Shown here: one piece after another, positions 30,685-62,788 of the stretch
Layout: each line of letters opens with the position of its first letter
How positions within the stretch are numbered: the first letter of the stretch is position 1
NCBI GenBank assembly: GCA_963735595.1
Contig: CAVTLK010000002.1
Location: 416,001-480,000, forward strand
Reading direction: 5' to 3'
From: an uncultured delta proteobacterium
Lineage (GTDB): Bacteria > Desulfobacterota > Zymogenia > Zymogenales > Zymogenaceae
Length of the DNA: 64,000 nucleotides
Notes under the pieces: model-generated
The model's input: only the letters and a program-made list of their open reading frames with translations
Told to the model about the DNA's origin: nothing
Databases searched by the model: none
Position numbers and translations under genes: made by a program

Positions 30685-31212
30685 TATGAAATCTGATACC
30701 GAACAATCCCCGGTAACGGGGAATCGCAGCAAGGGGCGCCCTGCCAGGGTGTGGGCATTCGTGTGGGTGGGGATCGGTATCCTGGCGTTCCTTGCGGCCG
30801 GCTTTTTCCTGACTACTACAATTCTCTTTCGTTCCGCCTATACCGAGCCGAAACAGGAGGAGGCGCGAAACGATCCTTACCGACCTCTTTGAGTCCGAGA
30901 TGAGCTACTTCGCCCGACACCACTGCTTTTCGGCGGATGCCGGCCGCCTCGGGTTTGACCCGGATACGTCCCGACGCTACGAATGGGCGATCATCGCGGC
31001 GGACTGCACGTCATTTCGTCGCCCGGGCCTGGGCCAACCTCGACGACGATCCACAACTCGATATCTGGGAGATCACCGACGGCGACGCCTTCCGTCCCCT
31101 TCACGTCTTTGACGATAAAAAGGACATCGGCTACCGCATCGAGCCCCGCTCGACGGAGCGCTGGCGCCCGGTCGACGGGTATTTCAAGCCGCCGGTAAGC
31201 GATGAGCGGTAG
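30685..31212 (+). CDS. Type IV pilin-like protein (frameshifted twice)
   Basis: TM helix, then KQEEAR..EMSYF..LGFDP..RYEW..F(V)ARAWANLDDDPQLDIWEI, resembling the deltaproteobacterial PilA body. Confidence 0.55.
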
Positions 31213-31270
31213 GGAAGGGCGAGGAAATGTCCCGTCGGGGCGTCCTTTATATCGAATTACCCTCGCTCTC

Positions 31271-31475
31271 CGTCATTGCGGGGAGGCCGTCAGGCCTCAG
31301 CGCGGCAATCCCCGTACTGTGACCGTGAACCCCAACTCGTCATTGCGAGAAGGCGTTAGCCGACGAAGCAATCTCCTCGCCGCCGGAGGCCCCGCCTCAA
31401 TAAGGAAGAAACAACCGCAGGGAAACCGGACGGGAGGATGAGATCGCTTCGGTCATTTCACTCCCCCGCGATGTC
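31271..31475. repeat. REP-like palindromic elements (GTCATTGCG...GCAATC type)
   Basis: cgtcattgcg..gcaatc at 31271 and 31338, and an inverted partner gagatcgcttcg..cgcgatg at 31440-31475, between convergent genes. Confidence 0.65.
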
Positions 31476-31493
31476 AGCGGGATAGATACTCAG

Positions 31494-32253
31494 TTATTTC
31501 GTCCTATCCGGTTTTTCATCCGCTACCCGATAATAGAAAACCGTAACCGCAATAATCGCCGCGATCGTGATGAGCTGATAGGTCGTGAGCGTCCCGAAGA
31601 ACCACGCCCGCTCCGGGGCCCCTCGGAAGGGGTCGATGATCGAGCGGGAGGTGACGTACATCAGGACGAACAGGAGGATCAGCTCACCCCGGAAGGCGGC
31701 CGTCTTCCGGCGGATCAAGAGCGTTACGACGATGACGAGGTTTGCGACAAGGTAGTAGACCTGGGTCGGGTGGAGCGGGATATTGAGCGGCGCGGCCTTC
31801 GATTCGGTAAAGACGATCCGCCCAGGGCAGTTCGGTGGGGGCGCCCCAGCAGCAGCCGGCCATGAGACAGCCGACGCGTCCGACGGCCACGATCAGGGCC
31901 AGCGCCGGGGCGGCCGTGTCGAGCCACTGCCAGGGATCGAGCCTTCTTTTACGAAACAGGATCAGCGCCACGATCAGCGCCCCAAAGAGAGCCCCCTGGA
32001 ACGACCAGCCGGAGGCGATGGGGGAGGGATGCCGGATGAACTGTGCCCAGTTGGTCAGGATGAACAGGAGCTTTGCCCCGACCAGGGCCGACGGCAGCAT
32101 CCAGAGGATGATATCGACACCCGTCCACGCCGAAAGGCCGTCGCGACGGGCCAGGACGAGGAAGAGGACCACGCCGGCAAGGTAACCCGCCGTTATGAAA
32201 AAGCCGTACGACCAGACGATGTGGCCGTCGATGGTAAAGAGGATGGGATGCAT
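31494..32253 (-). CDS. lgt: Prolipoprotein diacylglyceryl transferase (frameshifted near 31820 and 31720)
   Basis: MHPILF..SYG, GAKL, GRVGCLMAGCCWG.PT.LPW, HPTQVY and R.IIDPFRG. Confidence 0.85.
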
Positions 32254-32436
32254 AACTAATAGCTGCTACCTGATATCGTACGGGATGACACTGGCAGGCA
32301 AGAATCGCTATTGACTCGTGCAATTTCGAGGGTGGCACTGAGAAGCGAAGCTTGTCAGTGATCCGAACTATTCCCAACAGCGGGAACGAACCTTCCGGTT
32401 GTACGAGGCACGCGATGGTACGGAGGATCGGGTGCA

Positions 32437-34526
32437 TTATGGCTTCTTGCCGGTTACCCGCGTTTTGCCCCCGGCGTGATTTGCACTGAGTGCCGACTTT
32501 ACGGCCTTTGCGATCGATTCTACGTCGATACGGTCCATGCAGTGGTTGGGTCCCATGGGGCAGGGCGTTCCGTAGATGCCGCTCCTTGTTTCCGTCAGGC
32601 ATCCGTCCGGGTTCTGGCAGATCCGGTGGCCGACGAGGGTTGTCTGGCCCGGCCAGCCGTAGGTGGCGGGGTCTGTCGCCCCCCAGAGGGTTACGGCGGG
32701 CGTGCCGACCAGCCGGGCGATGTGGACAAAGAGGTTATCGGTCGTGACGATCAGGTCGAACCGGGCCGCCAGCCCGATTGCCTCCCTGACGGTGGTGACG
32801 CCCAGGAGGCTGTAGGCCCCGCGGATATACCGGTCGCGCGCGGCGCCCGCCTGGGCGACGAAGATTCCCTCGGCGGAGAGGCGTTTGACCAGCTCTTCCC
32901 ACTGGGCGATGACATGTCTTTGCGGGGCGAGAGCGACCAGGGGCAGATCAGGACGTTTTTATCGGAAAGGGGGATGCTGTTGATGAGCAGCTCGTCGATC
33001 GACCGGCTCAAACGGCACGAAGAGGCGTTCGGCGGCCGGCATCGGGACGCCGAGCATCTCGGCAAGAATCTTGAAGGGGCGGCCGTTCGGTCCGCCGAAG
33101 TCCGGGGTGATCCCAGTAGGCGGTCCCGACGACGGCCGATCCGGGCGGCGGGTTGCCGATCCGTTCGACGGCGGGGTGGCCCTTGAGGATCTCGCCGTAG
33201 GTGGTTCGGGTGACCAGAGAGAAACGCCGCCGCGGGTCCTGATCGACGGCGGCCTTCAGGACGCCCGAAAGGATGATCGTGTCACCGTAGCCGCCGAAGG
33301 GGCTGATCCAGAGGGGACGGTTCTTGGGCGGCGCCCTGAACGGGACGACCGTCGCTGGCCGGCGGGACGGGAGGCTCGGGGACGCTTCGGTCCGTGCGGT
33401 CCGGGGACGCCGCCGGGCCGTCCGGCTCGAAGCGGACGCCGGTGATCGGCTCGAAGTACTTCTCGATGAACCCCTTCTTGTAGGCGCACAGGGGCGATTT
33501 TCTCATCCAGTCGCCGGTCTCGGCGTAGCTGTCCAGCGGGCAGCCGCCGTGGCAGACAGTCCAGAGGCGGCACCCCTTGCACTCACCCTGTTCGAGGTGC
33601 AGCTGGCGGGCGCGATACATCTCCTTTTGGGGGTCTTTGAGGACGCGTGTCTATCGAATTTTCGTGGATGTGGCCGTAGTCCAGCAGGCCCCAGTCCGAC
33701 GAGCGGCCGCACTGAGAATACCGGCCGGCGGGTCCCACGGACATGTGGGTATCGGCGCACATCCCCGACTCGGCGCATTCCAGGCCGCCCTTTCTCTCGA
33801 TGATCGCCTCCACAAACGACATGAAGGGACGAATCCTCGGGAAGCGATCCCGGCGCTCCCACCAGACCGGAAAAATCGCCCCGAGGAACTCCACGAATTC
33901 TTCCGGGGTTATCGCAAGCTTGGCGACCTTGCGCTTGAAGGAGTAGATCGAGTTGAACTTGACGGAGCCGGTTTTGTTGAGGTTGGTCAGAAAGTAGAAG
34001 AGGTCAAGGGGGGCGTCCAGAGAGAGCTTCGTGACGACGTAGATCATCCCCCAATTGATGTCGTTTTCCTCCAGAAGGCCCAGCGCGTCCATGAAACGCC
34101 GGTTATAGGCCGCCGAGTCGATAGTGCTGCCCAGACCCCGGACGTCGGGGATCGGGTCGTAGCTCGTGCTGACGCCGTTGATGCCGAGCGTCCGAAAGAC
34201 CTCGATATATTCCGGCGACAGCAGGGTAATGTTGGTCTGGATATCGTGGGAGATGCGGTCCTTTCGTGCCGGGGCAGTGCCGTTGTTCGAATTCATGGGC
34301 CTTCAGGAAATAGTCGGGCCCCAGCAGCAGCGGCTCGCCGCCGTGCCAGATGATCTGGAACCGCTCGTCCGGGCGATCGGCGAGGTATTCATTGACCCGA
34401 ACAAAGAACCGCTCCAGGGTCTCCAGCGGCAGCCGTGACGCCCTTTTCGCGGTCTTTCCTGACCACGTCGCAGTAGGCGCAGTTGCCGTTGCACGCCTCG
34501 GTCGGTTTAAATATGACGGTGGTCAT
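32437..34526 (-). CDS. Radical SAM/SPASM peptide maturase with a C-terminal glycosyltransferase family 9 domain (reconstructed over frameshifts)
   Basis: RBS gaaaggag and ATG 34526: MTTVIFKPTEACNGNCAYC; WHGGEPLL, IQTN; SPASM CAESGMC..SQCGR..CKGCRLWTVCHGGCP..LC; then WISPFGGYGDTIILS, DLIVTTDNLFVHIA..GTPAVTLWGATDP..CMDRIDV. Confidence 0.8.
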
Positions 34527-35390
34527 GTCGCTCCTTTCTCGGTTCATCGCGCCGTTTGTCGAGGTCATCCAGGAGCGCGATCATCTCGACGGAGAAGGCC
34601 GCGCATCCCGTCCTGTCCGTCCCGTTTCGATCGAATTTCCCCAGGCAGACCTTCCATCCCGGGCAGCGCGAGCAGGGGTGATATGCGAGAAACAGGCGCC
34701 GGCGCACGTCGATCCGCTCCCGGTACGTCTCGGAATCGATAACTGTCGTCCAGCCGCTCGATATCGTTCTCGATGAAGCTTTCGTCGAGAAGTTCCCGGC
34801 GCGAGAGGGCGATGCGGCCGTCCGGGTCCAGGTGGAGGAAGTCCTTGGGGTCGTCGAAGAAGACCGGGCCCCACTCGATCCATCCGTCTGACTGGTAACG
34901 CCCCGCAATGGTCGAAAAGGGCTCGATCGGGCCGTGGGGTACGGCTGTCGACCAGGGAATAAGTCATGAGGTCGGCCAAGCCTTCCCAATCGACGGGTCC
35001 CGCGATCCCCGAAGACCGCCGCACATCGGATGTTGACCGACGAAAGAATCCTGAGGGCGGTGAGATTCCCGGGATCGTCGGCCGAAAGGTAAATCATGGG
35101 GTTCAGATCCCGAACCGTTCGCAGCCGCCGGGACGAGGCCGCGGAACTGCGCCATCTTCGGGGCAAAGACGGCAAGCTTGATGCCCGGCCCAGGCGTCGT
35201 CGAAGGGGACTTCGTCCAGGGGGATGCGAGAATCCAGGATGACCATCGAAAGCCGGTTGGCCGATGACCTCACGCACTCGGCGGCCCTGACGACGTCTGA
35301 CGGCTCATCGACCCGTACCGCCAGGACACGCTCGGATAAGTCGGCGATCAGCGTCTCGCTAAACGGCAATACAAGGTTTGGAAAGCCCAC
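34507..35390 (-). CDS. Uncharacterised partner protein with a SPASM-like Cys cluster and no visible CxxxCxxC (frameshifted)
   Basis: Overlaps both flanking rSAM genes; C-terminal HPCSRCPGWKVCLGKF..GC. Confidence 0.6.
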
Positions 35391-36393
35391 GTTCTATCTC
35401 CTGGAGCCGAACCGGCGCCTCGCCGACAAAGCGGTTCATGACCTGGCAGGCCCCGCCGCCCGCACACCGGCCCTCTTCCCGATGGATACAACCGTCACAC
35501 TCTTCGTAAATCCCGGCGGTCTCGGAGCGGACGCGGTCGAAGAGCCCCTGGTAGAAGTCGTGTACTTCCTTCATCGAGTTGAACTCGAAGAGGGAGCCGC
35601 TTGTGAAATCCCGAGAGCGGAAAGCATGCATAGACGTTCAGATCGGGGGTTAGGTCGATGGCCGGCCCGCAGCCGAATTTGAATTTCGCCGACTGGCGCA
35701 TAAGCCAGCCGAGCTGTTCGTCGGTAAACCCGCAGAGCGGGAAACCGCAGTCCAGACCCCGGCTTGATATCGAACCGATCCAGCGCCGGCCGAAATGAAT
35801 AGAGGCGGTCGATAACCGTCCGCACGTCGTCGGGTTTAATGATAGACGCTCTCAACTCCCGGCATCGGCGAGGCCAGGCCCAGCCGGATATGCCGGTGCA
35901 TGCCGTATCGCGCAATCAGGTCAAAGAGGAACCCGATGTCAAAATCGGTTCGATAGATGTTGAAGCCCGGCGTGCACCACGGCCCCATGAGGGAAAGGAA
36001 CTTCGCGATGCGCGTGCCCTCCTGCTTGGGGGCCGGGGTCTGATCGGGATTATTGAGGTTTACGACGAAGCTCAGCCGCGCGGGCGGCACCGCCGACAGG
36101 TGATCGGCCAGCTCCCTGAGACGCGCATCGGCCATAATGCCGCTGGTAAACACCGTTACGTGGAACTTGCGCTCGATAAGGAAGAGCACCATATCGACGA
36201 ACTCCGGGTGGAGGGTCGGCTCGCCGCCGAGCAGCGAAAGGCGATCCTGATCGGACGCGGCCAGAAAATCGGCAAGGTAGATCAGGTTTTCCCAGTTGAC
36301 AATGTCGCCCGAGGGGGACCCCTCCATCTCCCGCTTGGCAAAGCAGTAGGGGCAGGAACGGACGCAGCGGGATGTCATCAGGAGGTTGGTCAC
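35359..36393 (-). CDS. Radical SAM protein with a C-terminal SPASM/twitch-like region (frameshifted)
   Basis: RBS gaggag and GTG; CVRSCPYC, LLGGEPTLHP, DCGFPLC, GCGPAIDL..ACFPLS and CDGCIHREEGRCAGG. Confidence 0.85.
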
Positions 36394-36520
36394 GATTGCT
36401 CCTCGAACGGTAATAATGAGGAGAGGCGGTTATCGCATCGTACGGCGGACGTGGGCCCGAGTCTAACGGTCAAATCGCTCCACCGGAAAGGAGGGGTGAT
36501 ATACAAACAGCACTTCTTTT

Positions 36521-36883
36521 TTAGTTGTGCCAAATTATATTGCCGTAATTTTCGGAGTAATCGTAATAGTTCTGGTAATCGGAGTAGTTGTAATAATCGG
36601 AGTAGTTGTAATAATCAGAATAATTATAGTAGTATGCTGAATATTCGGTGTACATGTTTGAATAGTTGTAGTACGAATAGTTGTAATAGGAGTTACTGTA
36701 GCCGTTCACATACCCGCCGGTACACTCGTCCTGCCCCTGGGTAACGACTCCGGCGACGCCAAGGGTGCCGACCAGGGCGATCCCCTTGGCCATGCGCTTC
36801 ATCGCCTCCCGCCGGGTAAGCGTTTCCTTGTTTGTGGTGTCGATCTCTTGAGTTTTCTTCTTTGTCTTCTTTTCGTCGTTCAT
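36521..36883 (-). CDS. Putative RiPP precursor 1: twin-arginine-like leader plus Tyr-x-Asn/Asp repeat core (120 aa)
   Basis: RBS ggagaagac; TLTRREAMK, a hydrophobic stretch, QGQDEC, then about 25 Tyr in YYN/YSD/YSN triplets; directly upstream of the rSAM genes. Confidence 0.8.
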   Translation of the reverse strand: MNDEKKTKKKTQEIDTTNKETLTRREAMKRMAKGIALVGTLGVAGVVTQGQDECTGGYVNGYSNSYYNYSYYNYSNMYTEYSAYYYNYSDYYNYSDYYNYSDYQNYYDYSENYGNIIWHN

Positions 36884-37041
36884 CGTCTTCTCCTTGCAGA
36901 GCCGTCTTATCGTAAAGAGGAAGGCATGACAGGTCGAGGGTGGTGAATACTCAACGTGTCGCTCCGCCGGGACTTATATTACATGTAAGCTTCTTATCTT
37001 CCTGACTCCTGCAAGCCCGTCTTGCATACCGTTACTGTCAT

Positions 37042-37070
37042 AGTTTATTACCAGTCATGATGTGAGTCAA
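37042..37070 (-). promoter_or_regulatory. Putative sigma70 promoter for precursor 1 and the maturase genes
   Basis: TTGACT-17 nt-TAAACT on the minus strand. Confidence 0.5.
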
Positions 37071-37132
37071 GCAAATTGGTAAGTATCTTTAGTATAATAG
37101 TCGGAATTAAGGCCTGTCCCAGCAAAAAATAT

Positions 37133-37156
37133 AAAGGGGCCCGTTCAGGCCCCTTT
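37133..37156 (-). terminator. Terminator after precursor 2
   Basis: aaaggggcc-loop-ggccccttt hairpin followed on the minus strand by an AT/T-rich tract. Confidence 0.7.
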
Positions 37157-37177
37157 GGCTTGTCTATGTAACCCCGG

Positions 37178-37540
37178 TTACCAGGGGTGATAGTTGAAGT
37201 ACCCGCCGCCATGATTGTAATAATTGTAGTAGTCGCTGTAGTTGTAGTAGTCGCTGTACGTGTTGTAGTAATTATAGTACCCGTTGCTATAATTATAGTA
37301 CGCGTTCGAATAATCATAGTAGCCGGCATTGGAGTAGTTGTAGTAGCCCGGAGGGACCAGATTCACGTACCCGCCGGAGCATTCGTCCTGCCCCTGGGTA
37401 ACGACCCCGGCGACGCCGAGCGTGCCGACCAGGGCGATCCCCTTGGCCATGCGCTTCATCGCCTCGCGCCGGGAGAGTCTTTCGTCTTTCCTGACCTGGG
37501 CGGCCCCCGTTTCGTCTTTTTTCTTCTTCTTATCTTCCAT
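37178..37540 (-). CDS. Putative RiPP precursor 2, paralog of precursor 1 (120 aa from ATG 37540)
   Basis: Same RBS ggagaagac; identical RREAMKRMAKGIALVGTLGVAGVVTQGQDEC segment; core of 15 Y-x-N/D triplets. Confidence 0.8.
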   Translation of the reverse strand: MEDKKKKKDETGAAQVRKDERLSRREAMKRMAKGIALVGTLGVAGVVTQGQDECSGGYVNLVPPGYYNYSNAGYYDYSNAYYNYSNGYYNYYNTYSDYYNYSDYYNYYNHGGGYFNYHPW

Positions 37541-37678
37541 TGTCTTCTCCATTGATTCGGTTACCTACGAAATGTAGAGACGGCAATGTGAGAACCAGGG
37601 ATGCCGAAGTCTTACCGGGCAAGAATAATCGTTGCTGCCGTTGCTGCTTATCGACTTTACATGCTATCTCACGATATT

Positions 37679-37708
37679 ATTTTAACTATAAGTGAACTAT
37701 TCTGTCAA
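37679..37708 (-). promoter_or_regulatory. Putative sigma70 promoter for precursor 2
   Basis: TTGACA-18 nt-TAAAAT on the minus strand in an AT-rich intergenic region. Confidence 0.55.
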
Positions 37709-56926: not shown

Positions 56927-57361
56927 TCAAGGTTTCTCCTTCTGAACTGGTGCGAATAAGCGCGCGCGGGCCGACCGAACGCAACGTGCGATCTTCCCCT
57001 TGATGATACCTGCAGTCATGTTAGCCCGGGAGAGGAGGGCCGTCAACTTCCCGCGATGTGGGCGGATCAACCCCCGGGCGGCGCGGGAGACCATGACTAC
57101 CCTGGGTATGCCGCCGGTCGGCAGCTGGACGGGCGGATCGGGATAGGTAAGGCTGTCTCCCTTGCTGGTGATCCGGGGAGGGGCCTGACTCCTGTCGATT
57201 TTGACGATCCGATGCACAACATACTCGTTTTCCCGGCCGATGCAGACGATGTCGCCCGGCGCGCAATCGTCCGGGGCGGCGATCTCGAGGATCAGGGTAT
57301 CGCCCGGGCGGAGCGCAGGATACATGCTGTACCCCCGGAATGTGATCCGTCTATAGTCCAT
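56927..57361 (-). CDS. S24/S26 family peptidase
   Basis: GYSMYPALRPGD, VVHRIV and SKGDS (Ser/His-type S26-like). Confidence 0.8.
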   Translation of the reverse strand: MDYRRITFRGYSMYPALRPGDTLILEIAAPDDCAPGDIVCIGRENEYVVHRIVKIDRSQAPPRITSKGDSLTYPDPPVQLPTGGIPRVVMVSRAARGLIRPHRGKLTALLSRANMTAGIIKGKIARCVRSARARLFAPVQKEKP

Positions 57362-57421
57362 TTGCGTCTGTAGTCTATCTCGTGTCTATTGGCGACACGC
57401 GACGGTCGAGCGCGACCGGGC

Positions 57422-57676
57422 CTACGGCGATTTCCCGTAGTTGCAGTTCTGCGCGGTATTACCATTGCGGCAGTTTTGCGGCGTGGCCGAGTTGCCCTGG
57501 GCGCATGAGACGGTCGCCGCGGTACCGGTGTTACAGTCGCTCGTTGCCTGGCTGCCCGTTCCGCACTGACCCGTCGCGGTCGGTCCCGTGACGCACCGCG
57601 TCGCGCCTACTGCCTGGGTATAGTCCACCTGCAGATCGATGATCTTCGGCGGCTCATACGGCTTTTTTTGTTTCAT
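57422..57676 (-). CDS. Putative RiPP precursor with six CxxG repeats (SynChlorMet-type)
   Basis: Leader KKPYEPPKI (YxxP), then Cys about every 10 residues in a CxxGxxA(T) pattern. Confidence 0.8.
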   Translation of the reverse strand: MKQKKPYEPPKIIDLQVDYTQAVGATRCVTGPTATGQCGTGSQATSDCNTGTAATVSCAQGNSATPQNCRNGNTAQNCNYGKSP

Positions 57677-58637
57677 CGGCTATTCCCCTGAAAAAAGGTT
57701 TGGGGTCAAAATCCCGGGCAAAAACGAGGGTCGAGACGGGATGTCTCCGACAAAGCTCTCCGGCGAGATTGAAGGCCCTGGCCGCCGGCTTATGACCCAT
57801 GAACCGAAAGAAATGGATGTGATTGGAAAGCAGCATCGACAACGCCCGGCCCGGCGACAGATCGGCGATCCGGTTTTCCGATCCCTTTTCGAGAAACAGG
57901 ATGCGCGTGAGGGGAGCCGGGCCTGCGGGCTTATGAACCGGGTCTACCTGAGAAAAGGGGGTCGGGAAGAGGGAAGATGTCCCGCCGTTTTGCGAACACC
58001 ACGACCCGTCGTCCGAGAGTACCAGTCCGGGATCAACCGCGCGGGCGATCGTACTTTTGCCCGCACCGGAATTTCCGACAAAGAGATAGCCGTCGCCATC
58101 CAGGACCAGGGATGCGGCATGGAGCATAAGTGCCCCGTAATCCGGGGCGCACAGGGCCAGAACTCCCTGAAGCACGGGTGTCAAAGACGACTCCCTGTCC
58201 CAATCTTCTTCGACTTTTACAAGGGCGTCTGCCCGCCCGAGCCGGTGATCCACCGCCACGATAAAGCCGGCGCGCGGGATTACCGAGACGTCTCCCGCAC
58301 CAAACGCGGCCAACAGCGGCAGCGATACGGTTCCGGGCCGTATCGGCAATCTACGGCCGGTCGTGCGCCCGTAGGTTACCCCGGTGAACGGAAACCTCCG
58401 CTCTAATGCCTGGGCGATATGCTGTATCCGCGCGAGGTCTTCGGGCGTCAATATCTCATCCCAGGATGACCCGGAGACCTGCATTACCGACAGGCTGATT
58501 GAGACCCGGTTTCTTTTCCTCCCCGCGAAACGGGAGATCGGATCGTCCGGCCTGTGGCCGATGCTCATCGTCGGCTCGCCCTCCCTGTGATTGGCGATGG
58601 TTATATCCACCGAGACCCCTCCGACCGTGACGATCAT
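57654..58637 (-). CDS. HPr-kinase-related P-loop protein (ScmC-like)
   Basis: LHAASL, GNSGAGKSTIA, VLSDD and PTPF. Confidence 0.75.
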   Translation of the reverse strand: MIVTVGGVSVDITIANHREGEPTMSIGHRPDDPISRFAGRKRNRVSISLSVMQVSGSSWDEILTPEDLARIQHIAQALERRFPFTGVTYGRTTGRRLPIRPGTVSLPLLAAFGAGDVSVIPRAGFIVAVDHRLGRADALVKVEEDWDRESSLTPVLQGVLALCAPDYGALMLHAASLVLDGDGYLFVGNSGAGKSTIARAVDPGLVLSDDGSWCSQNGGTSSLFPTPFSQVDPVHKPAGPAPLTRILFLEKGSENRIADLSPGRALSMLLSNHIHFFRFMGHKPAARAFNLAGELCRRHPVSTLVFARDFDPKPFFRGIADETKKAV

Positions 58638-59722
58638 CGATCCACCATCCTTCCGGGCGGGAAAAGACCTTTATTGTAGGCCTCCTCGCACATCCAATGG
58701 GACGCAGCAACGCTTCCCGACAGGACAAAAGCGTCCGCCCGGCAGGAGCCGAGGCAGATCCCCGCCATAACGCACCGACCGCAGATTCCTTCCATTCGGT
58801 GTGGGACGACCTCCCGGAGCCGTTTAAGTACGGGGCTTTTCCCCCAGATCTCCGCCAGATCGTCGGTCCGGATATTGCCCATGACCAGATCCGGTTCCTC
58901 CCGGCCGATACCGCAGATCGAAATACCCCCGTCGGAAAGGATGCCGATAATGTTCAGCACGCGGCACTGGGAGTTTCTTCTGTCGAACAGGTGACCGATC
59001 GGCTTGAGGGCCGAGGGAATAGTGAAGAAAGTCTCAATGCCGTTACGGTCCGAGAGGTCCCTCTCCACCCACTCGGAGAGGGCCAGCAATTCTTCTACCT
59101 GCAGGGTCTCACCCCGATCCGTCAGCGCGCCGCCCCTGCCGACGGGATTGACGGGATTGATTTTCACCGAAGGCGTACCGATCCGCCGCGCCAGGTCAAC
59201 GACCCCCTCAATATCGGCGGCGTTTTCACGAACCAGGCTCATAATGAGCTGGACGGAAATGCCCTCGGCAGTGAGTAGTTCTGCGCCCGAGACGGCGTCG
59301 TCAAACGCGCCATTGACGCCCCGGAAGGAGTCGTGAAAGGAGGGGCGGTGGCTGTCAAGGCTGACGCTGAGAGAGGTTACCCCGTGTTTCTTTAGGAAAG
59401 CGGCGGTCTCGCGGTCGATCAGTGTCCCATTGGTCTCCACAAAAATCGTGAGGCCGCTGCCGGAAGCCAATTCGACGATCTCGAATATATTTCGGTTCAG
59501 GAAGGGCTCCCCGCCGGTGATCTTCACATGGGAGAGGCCCAGGGGCGTCGCCTTATCGATCACCTTGCGCACGTCGGCGGCCGTGAGGGAGTCTTTGGCC
59601 GTCTCGTCACGGGCGGCGAAGGTCGGGGATATCCAGCAGTGGGCGCATCGGAGGTTGCACTCGCCCGAGAGGTACAGGTATGCGTGGATAAGAGGATACG
59701 CGGATGTCCTATCGGCTCGCAT
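58634..59722 (-). CDS. scmF: Radical SAM/SPASM protein, SynChlorMet ScmF-like
   Basis: YPLIHAYLYLSGECNLRCAHCWI, VKITGGEP, ICGIG and EGICGRCVMAGICLGSCRA..CEEAYNKGLFP. Confidence 0.82.
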   Translation of the reverse strand: MRADRTSAYPLIHAYLYLSGECNLRCAHCWISPTFAARDETAKDSLTAADVRKVIDKATPLGLSHVKITGGEPFLNRNIFEIVELASGSGLTIFVETNGTLIDRETAAFLKKHGVTSLSVSLDSHRPSFHDSFRGVNGAFDDAVSGAELLTAEGISVQLIMSLVRENAADIEGVVDLARRIGTPSVKINPVNPVGRGGALTDRGETLQVEELLALSEWVERDLSDRNGIETFFTIPSALKPIGHLFDRRNSQCRVLNIIGILSDGGISICGIGREEPDLVMGNIRTDDLAEIWGKSPVLKRLREVVPHRMEGICGRCVMAGICLGSCRADAFVLSGSVAASHWMCEEAYNKGLFPPGRMVDR

Positions 59723-60854
59723 AAGACCCCTCCTCTTCGCGAAGCTTGAGACAGCAGGACGGGTCCCGGGCAAGCGTTGAGCCGCAGGCGGAAAAGGCCG
59801 ATGCGGCGCACCCCGCCGTGCAGTAAGGGGCATATCTGCAGTCCGTGCAGGTGGGAAGGCTCGTGATCGGGGTAACGAAGCGCCTGCGAAATTCCCGGAA
59901 TACCGCCGATTTGCTCCATATCGTGTCAAGGTCCGTCTCGAGGATGTTGCCAGCCACGAGCTCGGTGAGGCGATCGCAGGGAGTTGCGTGCCCGTCCGGC
60001 CGGATGGCGCATTCGGTGCGCAACGCACCGCATCCCGAAAGGCAGTTTATGCCCCCATCGTTTGGGGCCTCGCCTTCGGCACTGACCGAGCGGATGCCGG
60101 CAAAGATGTCATCTATCTGGAGGAAAGTGCCCGAGACGGAGGGATAGGTCTCCTTCAACTCCCGGAGGGACGCGGTGACCTCGCGCCGTTCTTCAGCTGA
60201 GAGATCGAGCTCGCCCCGATTGTCGTGGCCACGGCCGAGCGTGATGAGGTCATTGAATTTCACCCCCCGGATGCCGAGCTCCTCGGCCAACCTTGCCACC
60301 TCTTCCAGCCGCCGGAAGTTCAGGCGGGTCACGGTGCAATAAGCCGAGATTCGGCCAATTCGTTCGATGAGATAGTCCAGGCCCCGGACCGTCTCATAAA
60401 AGGCCCCGGGTCCGCGCAGCGCGTCGTGAACTTCCTCCGACCCGCCGTCAAGGCTCACCATGATATCCGAGAGCTTGGCCCCGTACTTTTGAAGGCGCCG
60501 TGCCGCCCCGTCGTCGATGAGGGCGGCGTTCGTGTTGAGGGAAAAACGGATCGGCTTTTGCGAGAGATGATCAAGGATCGTGAAGATATCCTCCCGTACG
60601 AAGGGCTCCCCGCCGCTGATCTTGACGCGGAACACCTTAAGATAGGCGATATGATCGATAAATGAAAGCCATTGAGGGGTCGTAAGATCCGGCCCGTAGG
60701 CATGATCCTTCCCGTAAACGGCGCAGTGGAGGCAGGACAGGTTGCATCGGGACGTAATGGAGATAAAGACGGACAGCGGCGCCCGCGGTATCTTCGGGGG
60801 GATGGGGGATATATCTCTGACCCGGTTGCGGCCGGCTGCGCTATCTGTGGTCAC
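59709..60854 (-). CDS. scmE: Radical SAM/SPASM protein, SynChlorMet ScmE-like
   Basis: ITSRCNLSCLHC, ISGGEPF, LSGCG..AIRPDG..PC and CTDCRYAPYCTAGC. Confidence 0.8.
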   Translation of the reverse strand: MTTDSAAGRNRVRDISPIPPKIPRAPLSVFISITSRCNLSCLHCAVYGKDHAYGPDLTTPQWLSFIDHIAYLKVFRVKISGGEPFVREDIFTILDHLSQKPIRFSLNTNAALIDDGAARRLQKYGAKLSDIMVSLDGGSEEVHDALRGPGAFYETVRGLDYLIERIGRISAYCTVTRLNFRRLEEVARLAEELGIRGVKFNDLITLGRGHDNRGELDLSAEERREVTASLRELKETYPSVSGTFLQIDDIFAGIRSVSAEGEAPNDGGINCLSGCGALRTECAIRPDGHATPCDRLTELVAGNILETDLDTIWSKSAVFREFRRRFVTPITSLPTCTDCRYAPYCTAGCAASAFSACGSTLARDPSCCLKLREEEGSYASR

Positions 60855-60908
60855 GATTTTGTCTCCCGCGTTTGTTTTTCCATGTCAGGATACGTTTTCC
60901 GGGTTACC

Positions 60909-61526
60909 TCAGACGCCGATTAGTCCCCGAGTCACCAACCCCTCGATGAACGCCTCTACGTCGCGGCCGATCCGTTCCGGCTCGACCTGGGAGAACTCGG
61001 ACGCCACGGTATTAATGATATCGGCAAGAGTCCTTTTCCCGTCTATCTGGCTGATCACTATGAGCCCGGTTTCGTTGACTGCCGAAAGCTCGTCGGTAAC
61101 CGGGTCGAATATAAAGGCTCCGTCGTCTTCTTGCCGGATGACGGTCTCCCGTTTGATTCTGGGTATGAACGAGCGGTCAGGCGCCATGGCAATGACTCCC
61201 TTTTTAAGCAGTTCACGATAGATCTTTTTTACGTCCCGAGTAACGACTTTCGTTTTCTTATCGAAGTCCCAGGCGACCATCCGGGCGATCCATTCGAGGT
61301 TTAGTGTGCCGTTGGTAAGTCGAATGACCGCCGCGGCCGTGTGGTTGAGGGGATAGACGCTCCGGCTCTCAATATTAAAGAGGACAATCTCGTCCCGCGT
61401 GCATTCGCATACAAGGATTCTATCGACGAGCTGGAAGACACTCCTCTCCGAGAACCTGACTTGCCGCTCGTAGACACGCCGCATGAAAGAGAGACAGTAA
61501 GAGAGTATTCTGCCGACAACTGCCAT
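60909..61526 (-). CDS. Tandem PqqD / RiPP recognition element protein
   Basis: Two repeats of the PqqD pattern: LF..S...LN.TA...G...RDV..LLKKGVI and IFDP.T....NETG..I..IDGKRT..RDV..L..RGLI. Confidence 0.78.
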   Translation of the reverse strand: MAVVGRILSYCLSFMRRVYERQVRFSERSVFQLVDRILVCECTRDEIVLFNIESRSVYPLNHTAAAVIRLTNGTLNLEWIARMVAWDFDKKTKVVTRDVKKIYRELLKKGVIAMAPDRSFIPRIKRETVIRQEDDGAFIFDPVTDELSAVNETGLIVISQIDGKRTLADIINTVASEFSQVEPERIGRDVEAFIEGLVTRGLIGV

Positions 61527-62788
61527 TATCGACGACCGGTAAAGAAGACGCGAAATCCCGATCTAACCAGGTGAAGCAAGCGCGCCCGGTAAACTCCCGG
61601 AATGTCGTGGGGATTAATGCCCATCTCATGAGCGATGATATTCCGGTGTGGCAACGCCATCCCCTTAAAGTAATAAAACTTTTTTCGATTGCTGTCAATG
61701 GTAAATCCGAGCAGTATGTCCCCGAAGAAGAGGTAATCGGTGCGCCTGACGGCTGCCCCGATGAGCCGTCCGATCGGACGAGGTGGGCGATAATCGTCCG
61801 GGAGGGGGATACTCCCGGGATACCCGAAGATTTCCCGGATTGACCAGAGATGATAATTCAGCACGGGTAGAAGCCGGTGTCGGAGGGCGATGTCAATCAG
61901 GCTGTCTGAGAACGAGGGACGGCTGTTCTTGATGAGCAGCACCCCGGCATCCATGAACCAGAAATCCATGATGTAGGAGTGGGTGAGGGCGTGCAGTGCC
62001 GTCATAATCAGGGTGTGTCGTGGGTCCGGGGAGCGATAAGGAACACCGTTAATCTCCCGTTGTTCGGAACCGGCAAATATCTCATCTGATTCAATCCGGG
62101 GAAGGTGGGCGCTCGCCGGATTCCTGATATCCCCCACGAACCCGAAGTGAACGTCGATAATCAGTCCCCCCCGGGACCAGGTGCCGGAGTGTTCGCCTCC
62201 GTTGGGACGATACCCCATGTCCGAAAGAATCCCTGTCAGACCCGGGTAATCCTGCCGCCTGACAAGGAAGTCGGCGTCGGTAACGGGCCGGATGGCATTG
62301 TCGTGATAGCAGACAGTGATGAGGTCGTGTCCCTTGAAGAGCACTATGTCAATATTTTTTTCACCGCACCTGGAAAGTATCAGTCCAAGTTCCTTCCTCA
62401 TGGCCGCCGTCGCCATGGCAGTTCGCGCGAGAGCTAGTCGCGCCTTTTCCTTTTCCCTCTCTTCAAGGGCGCCCGAAAGACCCCACCGCGTGAGGGCGCC
62501 CATAACGGCTCCCAGGGAACCTTTCGCTGCGGCAAACGGGATAAGGTCTGGCGGCAGACGATCCGGCAGGTCGCGGGGAGTCACGGGATCTCGGCCGAGC
62601 ATCGTCTCCCATACGAGCCGAATAGCCCTGGCGGTGATCTCCCGGGAATCCGCCGACAGGCGGACACCTTCCGGCCTCTCCCCGGCCGCCCCGCTCAGCC
62701 GGGGAACGCCAAGGGTCGGGAGCAGGCCGAGTCCTGTCTTTTCCCGACAATGTGGTTGTCGTGTCATCATTACCGTCCCGGGCCGCAT
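61526..62788 (-). CDS. Nucleotidyltransferase family protein
   Basis: VLFKG..L..Y...RPVTDADFLV, IDVH and ALH motifs. Confidence 0.78.
   Translation of the reverse strand: MRPGTVMMTRQPHCREKTGLGLLPTLGVPRLSGAAGERPEGVRLSADSREITARAIRLVWETMLGRDPVTPRDLPDRLPPDLIPFAAAKGSLGAVMGALTRWGLSGALEEREKEKARLALARTAMATAAMRKELGLILSRCGEKNIDIVLFKGHDLITVCYHDNAIRPVTDADFLVRRQDYPGLTGILSDMGYRPNGGEHSGTWSRGGLIIDVHFGFVGDIRNPASAHLPRIESDEIFAGSEQREINGVPYRSPDPRHTLIMTALHALTHSYIMDFWFMDAGVLLIKNSRPSFSDSLIDIALRHRLLPVLNYHLWSIREIFGYPGSIPLPDDYRPPRPIGRLIGAAVRRTDYLFFGDILLGFTIDSNRKKFYYFKGMALPHRNIIAHEMGINPHDIPGVYRARLLHLVRSGFRVFFTGRR

Follow-up and report, generated by a model that had tools for sequence, protein, structure and literature searches.

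A conserved radical SAM cassette with tyrosine-repeat precursor peptides and a third Lgt paralogue in an uncultured member of the Zymogenaceae

Gene content of the locus

A stretch of 64,000 nucleotides from the genome of an uncultured delta proteobacterium of the family Zymogenaceae (contig CAVTLK010000002.1, positions 416,001 to 480,000; here 'the window') carries six co-oriented genes on its minus strand at 31494..37708. Two of them encode small precursor-like peptides ('A1' and 'A2'), and these are followed by genes for a radical S-adenosylmethionine (SAM) enzyme ('rSAM1'), a partner protein, a second radical SAM enzyme with a SPASM domain that runs into a GT9 domain ('rSAM2-GT9'), and a paralogue of Lgt. 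A preliminary description, made from the letters of the window, had proposed that these genes form a system for a ribosomally synthesised and post-translationally modified peptide (RiPP). The co-orientation and the overlap of the three maturase reading frames that it reported are borne out by the coordinates (overlaps of 32 nucleotides between rSAM1 and partner, and of 20 between partner and rSAM2), and the motifs that it listed (CVRSCPYC, CNGNCAYC, WHGGEPLL and IQTN) are all present in the translations. It had also described two peptides of 120 residues with a shared leader and a tyrosine-rich core; the pair, its near-identical leaders and its cores stand, with lengths corrected to 124 and 120 residues. 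The features of the operon, in the order of transcription, are as follows.

37679..37708, minus strand: sigma-70-type promoter-like site at the operon head, 11/12 consensus matches with an 18-nt spacer (consensus match only)
37178..37552, minus strand: precursor A1, 124 aa, with twin-arginine-like leader, hydrophobic stretch, Cys58 in the context QDEC, and Tyr-rich core
37133..37156, minus strand: terminator-like hairpin of 10 pairs, 3' of A1 (consensus match only)
37070-37042, minus strand: weaker promoter-like site past the A1 hairpin (consensus match only)
36521..36883, minus strand: precursor A2, 120 aa, with leader as in A1, Cys54 and Tyr-rich core
35359..36393, minus strand: rSAM1, 343 aa in relatives, with CxxxCxxC and 7 invariant further Cys (SPASM-like), in no curated family
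34507..35390, minus strand: pseudo-rSAM partner, ~290 aa, with rSAM/SPASM fold, no SAM-cluster motif and 4 conserved C-terminal Cys
32437..34526, minus strand: rSAM2/SPASM fused to GT9, ~695 aa in relatives, with WHGGEP and 8 SPASM Cys
32254..32436, minus strand: extra spacer of ~184 nt, in which the lgt 5' end is repeated at the start
31494..32253, minus strand: cassette-linked third Lgt paralogue, ~255 aa, derived from the lspA-linked lgt of the host family

Precursor peptides

Neither A1 nor A2 has a match in Pfam or NCBIfam, and a search of the ESM Atlas with A1 returned weak matches to unnamed entries only. Their cores contain 15 (A1) and 14 (A2) non-overlapping Tyr-x-Asn/Asp triplets, together with 3 and 5 Asn-x-Ser sequons, respectively, at which N-glycosylation is conceivable. 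Tyrosine stands two residues ahead of 22 of the 23 asparagines and all 7 aspartates (29/30 together) and ahead of none of the 14 serines; asparagine is found at +2 from tyrosine at a rate of 0.45, versus 0.19 in shuffled cores, and tyrosine recurs at +3 from tyrosine (0.62 versus 0.45). When 78 cores from many genomes were pooled, tyrosine occupied the -2 position of 497 of 613 asparagines and 137 of 162 aspartates, serine and arginine were also used at +2, and glycine was avoided there (z -7). By their spacing, the asparagines and aspartates appear to lie in the register of the 'triceptides', in which an aromatic residue is cross-linked to the residue at +2. The Tyr-x-Asn/Asp motif is the version used by this genus of a wider Tyr-x-(Asn/Asp/Ser/Arg) pattern. 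One genus has cores with Tyr-x-Arg in place of Tyr-x-Asn/Asp that are strongly cationic (L020:3952-4900 and L021:9976-11001), some cores are almost pure tyrosine and serine, and cores in general are highly diverse in their length, charge and copy number.

The leaders were collected with a detector that allowed lysine or glutamine for arginine and phenylalanine for alanine. Their consensus, drawn from 79 precursors, reads [ST]-R-R-[ED]-A-[LIM]-K-R-[IM]-A, followed by a hydrophobic stretch; the twin arginines are present in 75/79 and 76/79 leaders at positions where the detector permitted lysine or glutamine, and a tatC gene is found in the window genome. The hydrophobic stretch ends in a cysteine, which in the window lies in the context QDEC. 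(Neither the twin-arginine-like signal nor this cysteine had been part of the preliminary description.) Among the precursors of the Zymogenaceae, 11 of 12 have a cysteine closing the hydrophobic stretch, always preceded by glutamate or glutamine, and outside the family such a cysteine is present in 24 of 67, in 21 of them after glycine, alanine or serine in a lipobox-like manner. Judging from its invariant alanine and its K-R-[IM]-A extension, the leader may also serve as a helix to which the enzymes bind.

Domain searches of 15 such proteins identified two precursors that end in a Peptidase_S74 domain and one that ends in Lcl_C, all over cut-off (L095:10902-11666, L100:8604-9350 and L122:5615-6583). 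The Peptidase_S74 chaperone domain aids the folding of trimeric fibres.

Two further observations concern the precursors. Run on the whole window genome, the detector matched A1 and A2 only; it missed an orphan third precursor of the same leader family that lies far from the cassette (G000:C5:553545-553987, equivalent to L023:7545-7988, minus strand). Orphan precursors also occur in genomes G002, G003 and G005, and two of the orphans are without the cysteine. In addition, charged tails rich in histidine, aspartate, glutamate or arginine extend past the tyrosine core in some precursors (L018:4235-5893, and L017, at L047:5709-6032).

The maturases and the GT9 domain

Comparison of the maturases with the NCBIfam collection placed none of them over a curated cut-off, as the claim of an unrecognised system had implied. 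In three intact relatives, the XyeB, GrrM, FxsB, YhhB and AmcB families scored 39-85 bits against cut-offs of 310-450, the equivalogue for the anaerobic sulfatase maturase (TIGR03942) 124-131 bits against 349, and the His-Xaa-Ser system at most 57 of 370 bits (HxsB) and 18 of 268 bits (HxsC). The best NCBIfam matches of rSAM2 are nevertheless aromatic cross-linkers, and the histidine of its HGGEP motif is invariant. Past its first 100 residues, rSAM1 bears no resemblance to characterised maturases.

The partner had previously been regarded as little more than a SPASM-like cluster of cysteines. It is instead a whole protein of the rSAM/SPASM fold (a partial TIM barrel plus SPASM) that is without the SAM-cluster motif, and it is a degenerate paralogue of rSAM2. 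An alignment of 75 partner sequences shows strong conservation of only four cysteines, all C-terminal, and the CxxxCxxC motif is absent. The partner belongs to no family in Pfam or NCBIfam, shows no homology to rSAM1 by hhalign, and matches only unnamed clusters in the ESM Atlas, plus one with 17% SPASM. A Foldseek search with its model gave no match at E<=0.001; the top rows were nonetheless rSAM/SPASM proteins.

The GT9 domain into which rSAM2 had been said to run is confirmed by PF01075 (cut-off 22), with 40.9 bits in the window and 31.4 and 22.1 in two relatives, although across loci it proves to be optional. The median serine content of cores is 0.17 at loci with GT9 versus 0.10 at those without, a small shift among non-independent and in part truncated loci that is not used here as evidence.

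Conservation and distribution

The cassette is real, conserved and widespread across bacteria. A search of relatives located rSAM1 in 7 of 9 Zymogenaceae genomes at 60-100% identity, and 51 other genomes of the phylum gave weak generic matches at most. The loci of the family share one gene order (1-5 precursors, rSAM1, partner, rSAM2-GT9 and lgt), with genes that are mostly intact; in one relative (G009) the cassette is divided between two contigs.

When GTDB genomes were scanned, the rSAM1 alignment yielded 131 candidate stretches, 94 of which were confirmed and the best 80 of these analysed (41-100% identity). Within those best 80, the partner is present at 78 loci, rSAM2 at 76, GT9 at 51 and lgt at 4. 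When the count is confined to the 56 loci flanked on each side by 1.5 kb or more (the 24 shorter loci being set aside), rSAM1, partner and rSAM2 occur together in 56/56 and GT9 in 39/56. A tyrosine-rich precursor with the same leader accompanies them in 55/56, of which 53 were found by the detector and two on inspection (L118, and L053 on the opposite strand). The preliminary description had named repeated co-occurrence with Tyr-x-Asn/Asp peptides as support, and co-occurrence with tyrosine-repeat precursors is borne out; the same account regarded homologous radical SAM genes without tyrosine-repeat peptides as fatal to the proposal, and among close homologues L112 is the sole well-flanked locus of that kind.

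Judged by their titles, the hosts belong to the Desulfobacterota, Nitrospirota, Nitrospinota, Acidobacteriota, Bacteroidota, Spirochaetota, Gemmatimonadota, Planctomycetota, Verrucomicrobiota, Fibrobacterota and Elusimicrobiota, with further titles naming Chlorobiaceae, Ignavibacteria, Polyangia and one Thorarchaeota bin, for a total of more than 10 phyla. Protein searches returned 1506 homologues of rSAM1 at E<=1e-20 and 464 representatives of the partner at E<=0.001. A remote homologue of rSAM1, with 32% identity, is encoded on a plasmid of Candidatus Chlorohelix (L236:7001-8032) among other radical SAM genes and a protein with a twin-arginine (RR) signal; no tyrosine-repeat peptide or partner is found near it, which bounds the family.

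Several loci depart from the common arrangement. A second tandem trio is present at L096:4039-6966, where the rSAM1 copy is also without the SAM motif, and two rSAM2 paralogues are found in each of five loci (L062, L064, L065, L066 and L080). The Thorarchaeota-titled bin holds a full cassette (L121), through either archaeal transfer or a binning error. In G002, rSAM2-GT9 is continuous with lgt in one 949-aa frame (L017:5150-7999), as a true triple fusion or an assembly error.

The Lgt paralogue

The last gene of the operon encodes a genuine Lgt homologue (142-169 bits against PF01790, over cut-off), as had been claimed. It is a family-specific add-on and not a core part of the system: a conserved extra paralogue that is confined to the Zymogenaceae (4/80 loci). 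Genomes of this family mostly hold three Lgts, which may be termed 'canonical', 'lspA-linked' and 'cassette'. In an approximate tree, from which truncated sequences of less than 180 aa were left out, the cassette Lgts form one clade (support 0.995) inside the lspA-linked group of the family (0.92). Their ratio of nonsynonymous to synonymous substitution rates (dN/dS) of 0.15-0.18, compared with 0.18-0.19 for lspA-linked and 0.10-0.14 for canonical copies, indicates purifying selection. The gene lies behind the cassette in 7/7 relatives, in the closest of which it overlaps the stop of GT9, and Tyr26, Arg143, Tyr235, Arg239 and Arg246 are retained in 6/7 cassette Lgts. The His103 site is variable in lspA-linked Lgts too, where tyrosine, serine, histidine, glutamine, leucine and phenylalanine are found.

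One relative (G004, 94% complete) has no rSAM1 match. On a short contig of that genome, a cassette-type Lgt lies directly behind two Cys-repeat peptides with RR leaders (L150:3-356 and 561-1025), which match TIGR04117 and TIGR04114 weakly and whose maturases are not on that contig; a search of 13 genomes, G004 among them, with TIGR04115 recovered nothing at E<=1e-20. A scan of metagenomes with the cassette Lgt recovered mostly lspA-linked housekeeping Lgts, and of 80 sequences only 2, each from a short contig, belonged to the cassette clade. The simplest reading, which rests on one lineage, is that the cassette Lgt is a form of the enzyme dedicated to repeat peptides that are exported.

A proposed pathway and its alternatives

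The operon is proposed to produce, from Tyr-x-x repeat precursors, an envelope peptide that is poly-cyclophane, glycosylated, exported through the twin-arginine translocation (Tat) system and lipid-anchored; every chemical step in it is predicted, and the proposal as a whole stands about an even chance of being right. In the cytoplasm, the conserved leader helix (RR-x-A-[LMI]-K-R-[IM]-A) would be the binding site of the maturases, and the tyrosine-repeat peptides are very probably the substrates of these enzymes. Aided by its SAM-less paralogue, rSAM2 would link tyrosine rings to the beta-carbon of the residue at +2, and the formation by this pair of up to ~15 three-residue cyclophanes per chain seems rather likely. 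A second radical modification would be added by rSAM1, and glycosylation of core hydroxyls by GT9, plausibly with a heptose, is reasonably likely. The rigid product, which could not be threaded unfolded, would quite probably leave through Tat on the same leader; exit in this manner would therefore need no dedicated protease or exporter. Export by a general pathway had been suggested before on the absence of both from the cassette, and the twin-arginine-like leader makes Tat the more likely route. In the Zymogenaceae, the slightly favoured final step is transfer of diacylglycerol by the extra Lgt to the cysteine of an acidic, atypical lipobox, which would anchor the product in the envelope. The end product would then be an envelope-bound, cross-linked glyco-lipopeptide and not a freely released antibiotic.

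Observations that weigh against this pathway can be found for each of its steps. For cross-linking, the scores of rSAM2 against the nearest families are low (DynA 134-142 bits for a cut-off of 450; DarE 98-114 of 650; GrrM 73-82 of 310; FxsB 58-83 of 370), and among sequences in the PDB its match to the anaerobic sulfatase-maturating enzyme (anSME) reaches 123 bits, compared with 70 for ChlB; it also keeps all eight SPASM cysteines of anSME. For glycosylation, the GT9 scores are modest (22-41 bits) and the acceptor is a predicted one. For export, the Tat model TIGR01409 matches 3/7 tyrosine precursors at 12-15 bits, all below its cut-off of 16.7, and leaves the window precursors unmatched at E 0.01; the Tat consensus usually has phenylalanine at a position that alanine holds in 79/79 of these leaders. 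For anchoring, the His103 site is changed (to glutamine, alanine, leucine or threonine, with glutamine in the window type) and Glu243 is lost in 7/7 cassette Lgts, and PMC8689077 reports that His103Gln inactivates the Escherichia coli enzyme. The lipobox consensus given in the same paper is [LV][ASTVI][GAS]C, from which QDEC of the window precursors departs. The cysteine is missing in 43/67 precursors from outside the family and in 4 from within it, the correlation between lipobox and lgt comes from one lineage, and the G004 peptide has an ordinary-looking box.

The alternative that survives best, although it is unlikely, keeps the same cassette and substrates but gives them another chemistry: Tyr-Tyr or aryl-ether links, L-to-D epimerisation, cysteine thioethers, or anSME-like oxidation of serine or cysteine, with the period of three reflecting a beta-strand or solenoid fold. 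The proximity of rSAM2 to anSME and its retained SPASM cysteines would suit this reading, as would the isolation of rSAM1 from characterised maturases, the existence of nearly pure Tyr/Ser cores, and an enrichment of tyrosine at +3 that equals that of asparagine at +2. Against it stand the strict use of asparagine and aspartate at +2 and the exclusion of glycine, which suit a beta-carbon acceptor, together with the aromatic cross-linkers at the head of the NCBIfam matches and the invariant HGGEP histidine.

A somewhat less probable alternative accepts the cassette as described and regards Lgt as a non-catalytic membrane partner or a passenger, with signal peptidase I cutting the leader and the product being released. 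The altered His103 and Glu243 sites, the absence of lgt from 76/80 loci, the presence of two other Lgts in the genome and the non-canonical box (ahead of which the residues TQG may form a signal peptidase I site) all speak for it. It does not readily explain why the gene is kept behind the cassette in every relative and overlaps the GT9 stop in the closest, why selection on it is comparable to that on the lspA-linked copy, why the cysteine is conserved in 11/12 family precursors, or why in G004 the paralogue is linked to another RR-leader repeat peptide.

Duplicated essential genes in biosynthetic clusters often mark the target of the product, and the extra Lgt, with its altered active-site residues, might accordingly be a self-resistance copy that protects against a released antimicrobial which blocks lipoprotein maturation. 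The best family matches of rSAM2, DynA and DarE, do make envelope-targeting antibiotics (PMC11002830). The same paralogue, however, lies beside an unrelated Cys-repeat peptide in G004, the cores are far from uniform in length, charge or copy number, loci outside the family would need equal protection and are without lgt, and the cassette has neither protease nor exporter, so that self-resistance is very improbable.

The proposed pathway of cross-linking, glycosylation, Tat export and anchoring can be extended to its fullest form: a rod-like tyrosine-cyclophane polymer, glycosylated, Tat-exported, sometimes trimerised through S74 and lipid-anchored, in anaerobes of more than 10 phyla, with the family Lgt reading an acidic, non-consensus lipobox as a RiPP tailoring enzyme. 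Such a ribosomal product would form a class apart both from released small-molecule RiPPs and from ordinary lipoproteins. This fullest form is tentative, and doubtful in its entirety.

Integrity of the reading frames

Single-base indels split all four enzyme genes in the window: rSAM1 has 3, the partner gene 5 and rSAM2-GT9 several, and lgt shows a single change of frame. Relatives carry intact versions of the same genes. These broken frames are assembly errors, because the extra letters at the break points are missing from relatives' contigs of four public runs (among the matches listed, 12 of 66 rows) and every one of the 11 regions compared shows 1-nt indels against the closest relative, at 0.9-3.0 per kb. 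The extra ~184-nt spacer has no counterpart in the closest relative or in the contigs from three runs. That the operon is truly decaying is scarcely credible: it is true that ~17 indels fall in 4.9 kb of enzyme genes, versus none that can be traced to the window in some of the genes alongside, but the indels are clumped and affect both assemblies, the adjacent 680-aa gene is likewise broken, and a piece of rSAM1 compared with the closest relative has dN 0.002 and dS 0.13.

Relation to known systems

The closest functional parallel is with the triceptide systems (XyeB, GrrM/OscB, FxsB, YxdB, YhhB and ChlB), which similarly place an HGGEP rSAM/SPASM enzyme beside a leader-plus-core peptide with aromatic-X-X motifs and have no stand-alone RiPP recognition element; Tyr-x-Asp and Tyr-x-Arg links are known among them (PMC11002830). 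Unlike those systems, the cassette scores far below every family cut-off, carries ~15 motifs per core, adds a second radical SAM enzyme, a pseudo-rSAM and GT9, and uses an export-signal leader with a lipid-type cysteine and no dedicated protease or transporter. Judged from its genes, it would work like a triceptide system, yet it falls outside every described maturase family tested.

Darobactin and dynobactin maturases (DarE and DynA) provide the best NCBIfam scores of rSAM2, but their precursors have single short cores, in contrast to the long repeat cores and three-enzyme set found here, and the scores lie below 450 (DynA) and 650 (DarE). The closest solved structure by sequence, anSME, shares the 8-Cys SPASM set and differs in that histidine replaces glutamine ahead of GGEP, that the cassette has no sulfatase, and that the score is below the cut-off of 349. 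The radical SAM systems for Cys-Xaa-Xaa-Xaa repeats (TIGR04114-TIGR04119) and the GG-Bacteroidales pseudo-rSAM systems resemble the cassette in joining a repeat-rich precursor to a radical SAM enzyme and a partner (pseudo-rSAMs adjoining radical SAM enzymes are noted in PMC10352776), and the G004 peptides beside a cassette-type Lgt match the former weakly through TIGR04117; their maturase and pseudo-rSAM models nonetheless miss the partner, and the cores here are tyrosine-based. Finally, the bacterial Lgt/lipoprotein pathway is echoed in the PF01790 match and in most of the head-group residues, and departed from in the tie of a third copy to a peptide cassette, the changed His103 and Glu243 sites and the candidate acidic, non-consensus lipobox.

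The gene set is apparently undescribed. The preliminary description did not recognise the combination, and no account of it was found in the literature searched, which included PMC11002830, PMC8939145, PMC8689077, PMC12912966, PMC10352776, PMC7470986, PMC11499958 and PMC10885120; it could stand as an unnamed cluster in the supplements of published triceptide or rSAM-RiPP networks, that of PMC11499958 included. With this gene set, radical SAM peptide maturation gains a large, unnamed family from anaerobes of sediment, soil and gut. Three of its enzymes lend themselves directly to testing: a candidate tyrosine cyclophane synthase that would act processively on ~15 sites, another radical SAM enzyme, and a pseudo-enzyme. 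Anchoring, if true, would join RiPP chemistry to the lipoprotein pathway through an Lgt that follows another substrate rule, and would mean that lipoprotein predictors overlook acidic lipoboxes.

Other features of the window

The operon is flanked by what are presumably fatty-acid oxidation and lysine fermentation genes (labels read from their translations). Dispersed short repeats flank lgt, in the 32254-32436 spacer and in a downstream element at 31200-31500 that has many 70-90% copies elsewhere in the genome. A second peptide-maturation-like cluster, resembling a SynChlorMet cassette, occupies 56927-62788 on the minus strand; it comprises an ScmF-like protein (355 of 400 bits), an ScmE-like protein (218 of 400), a PqqD-family protein, which alone is over its cut-off, and a signal-peptidase-like open reading frame.

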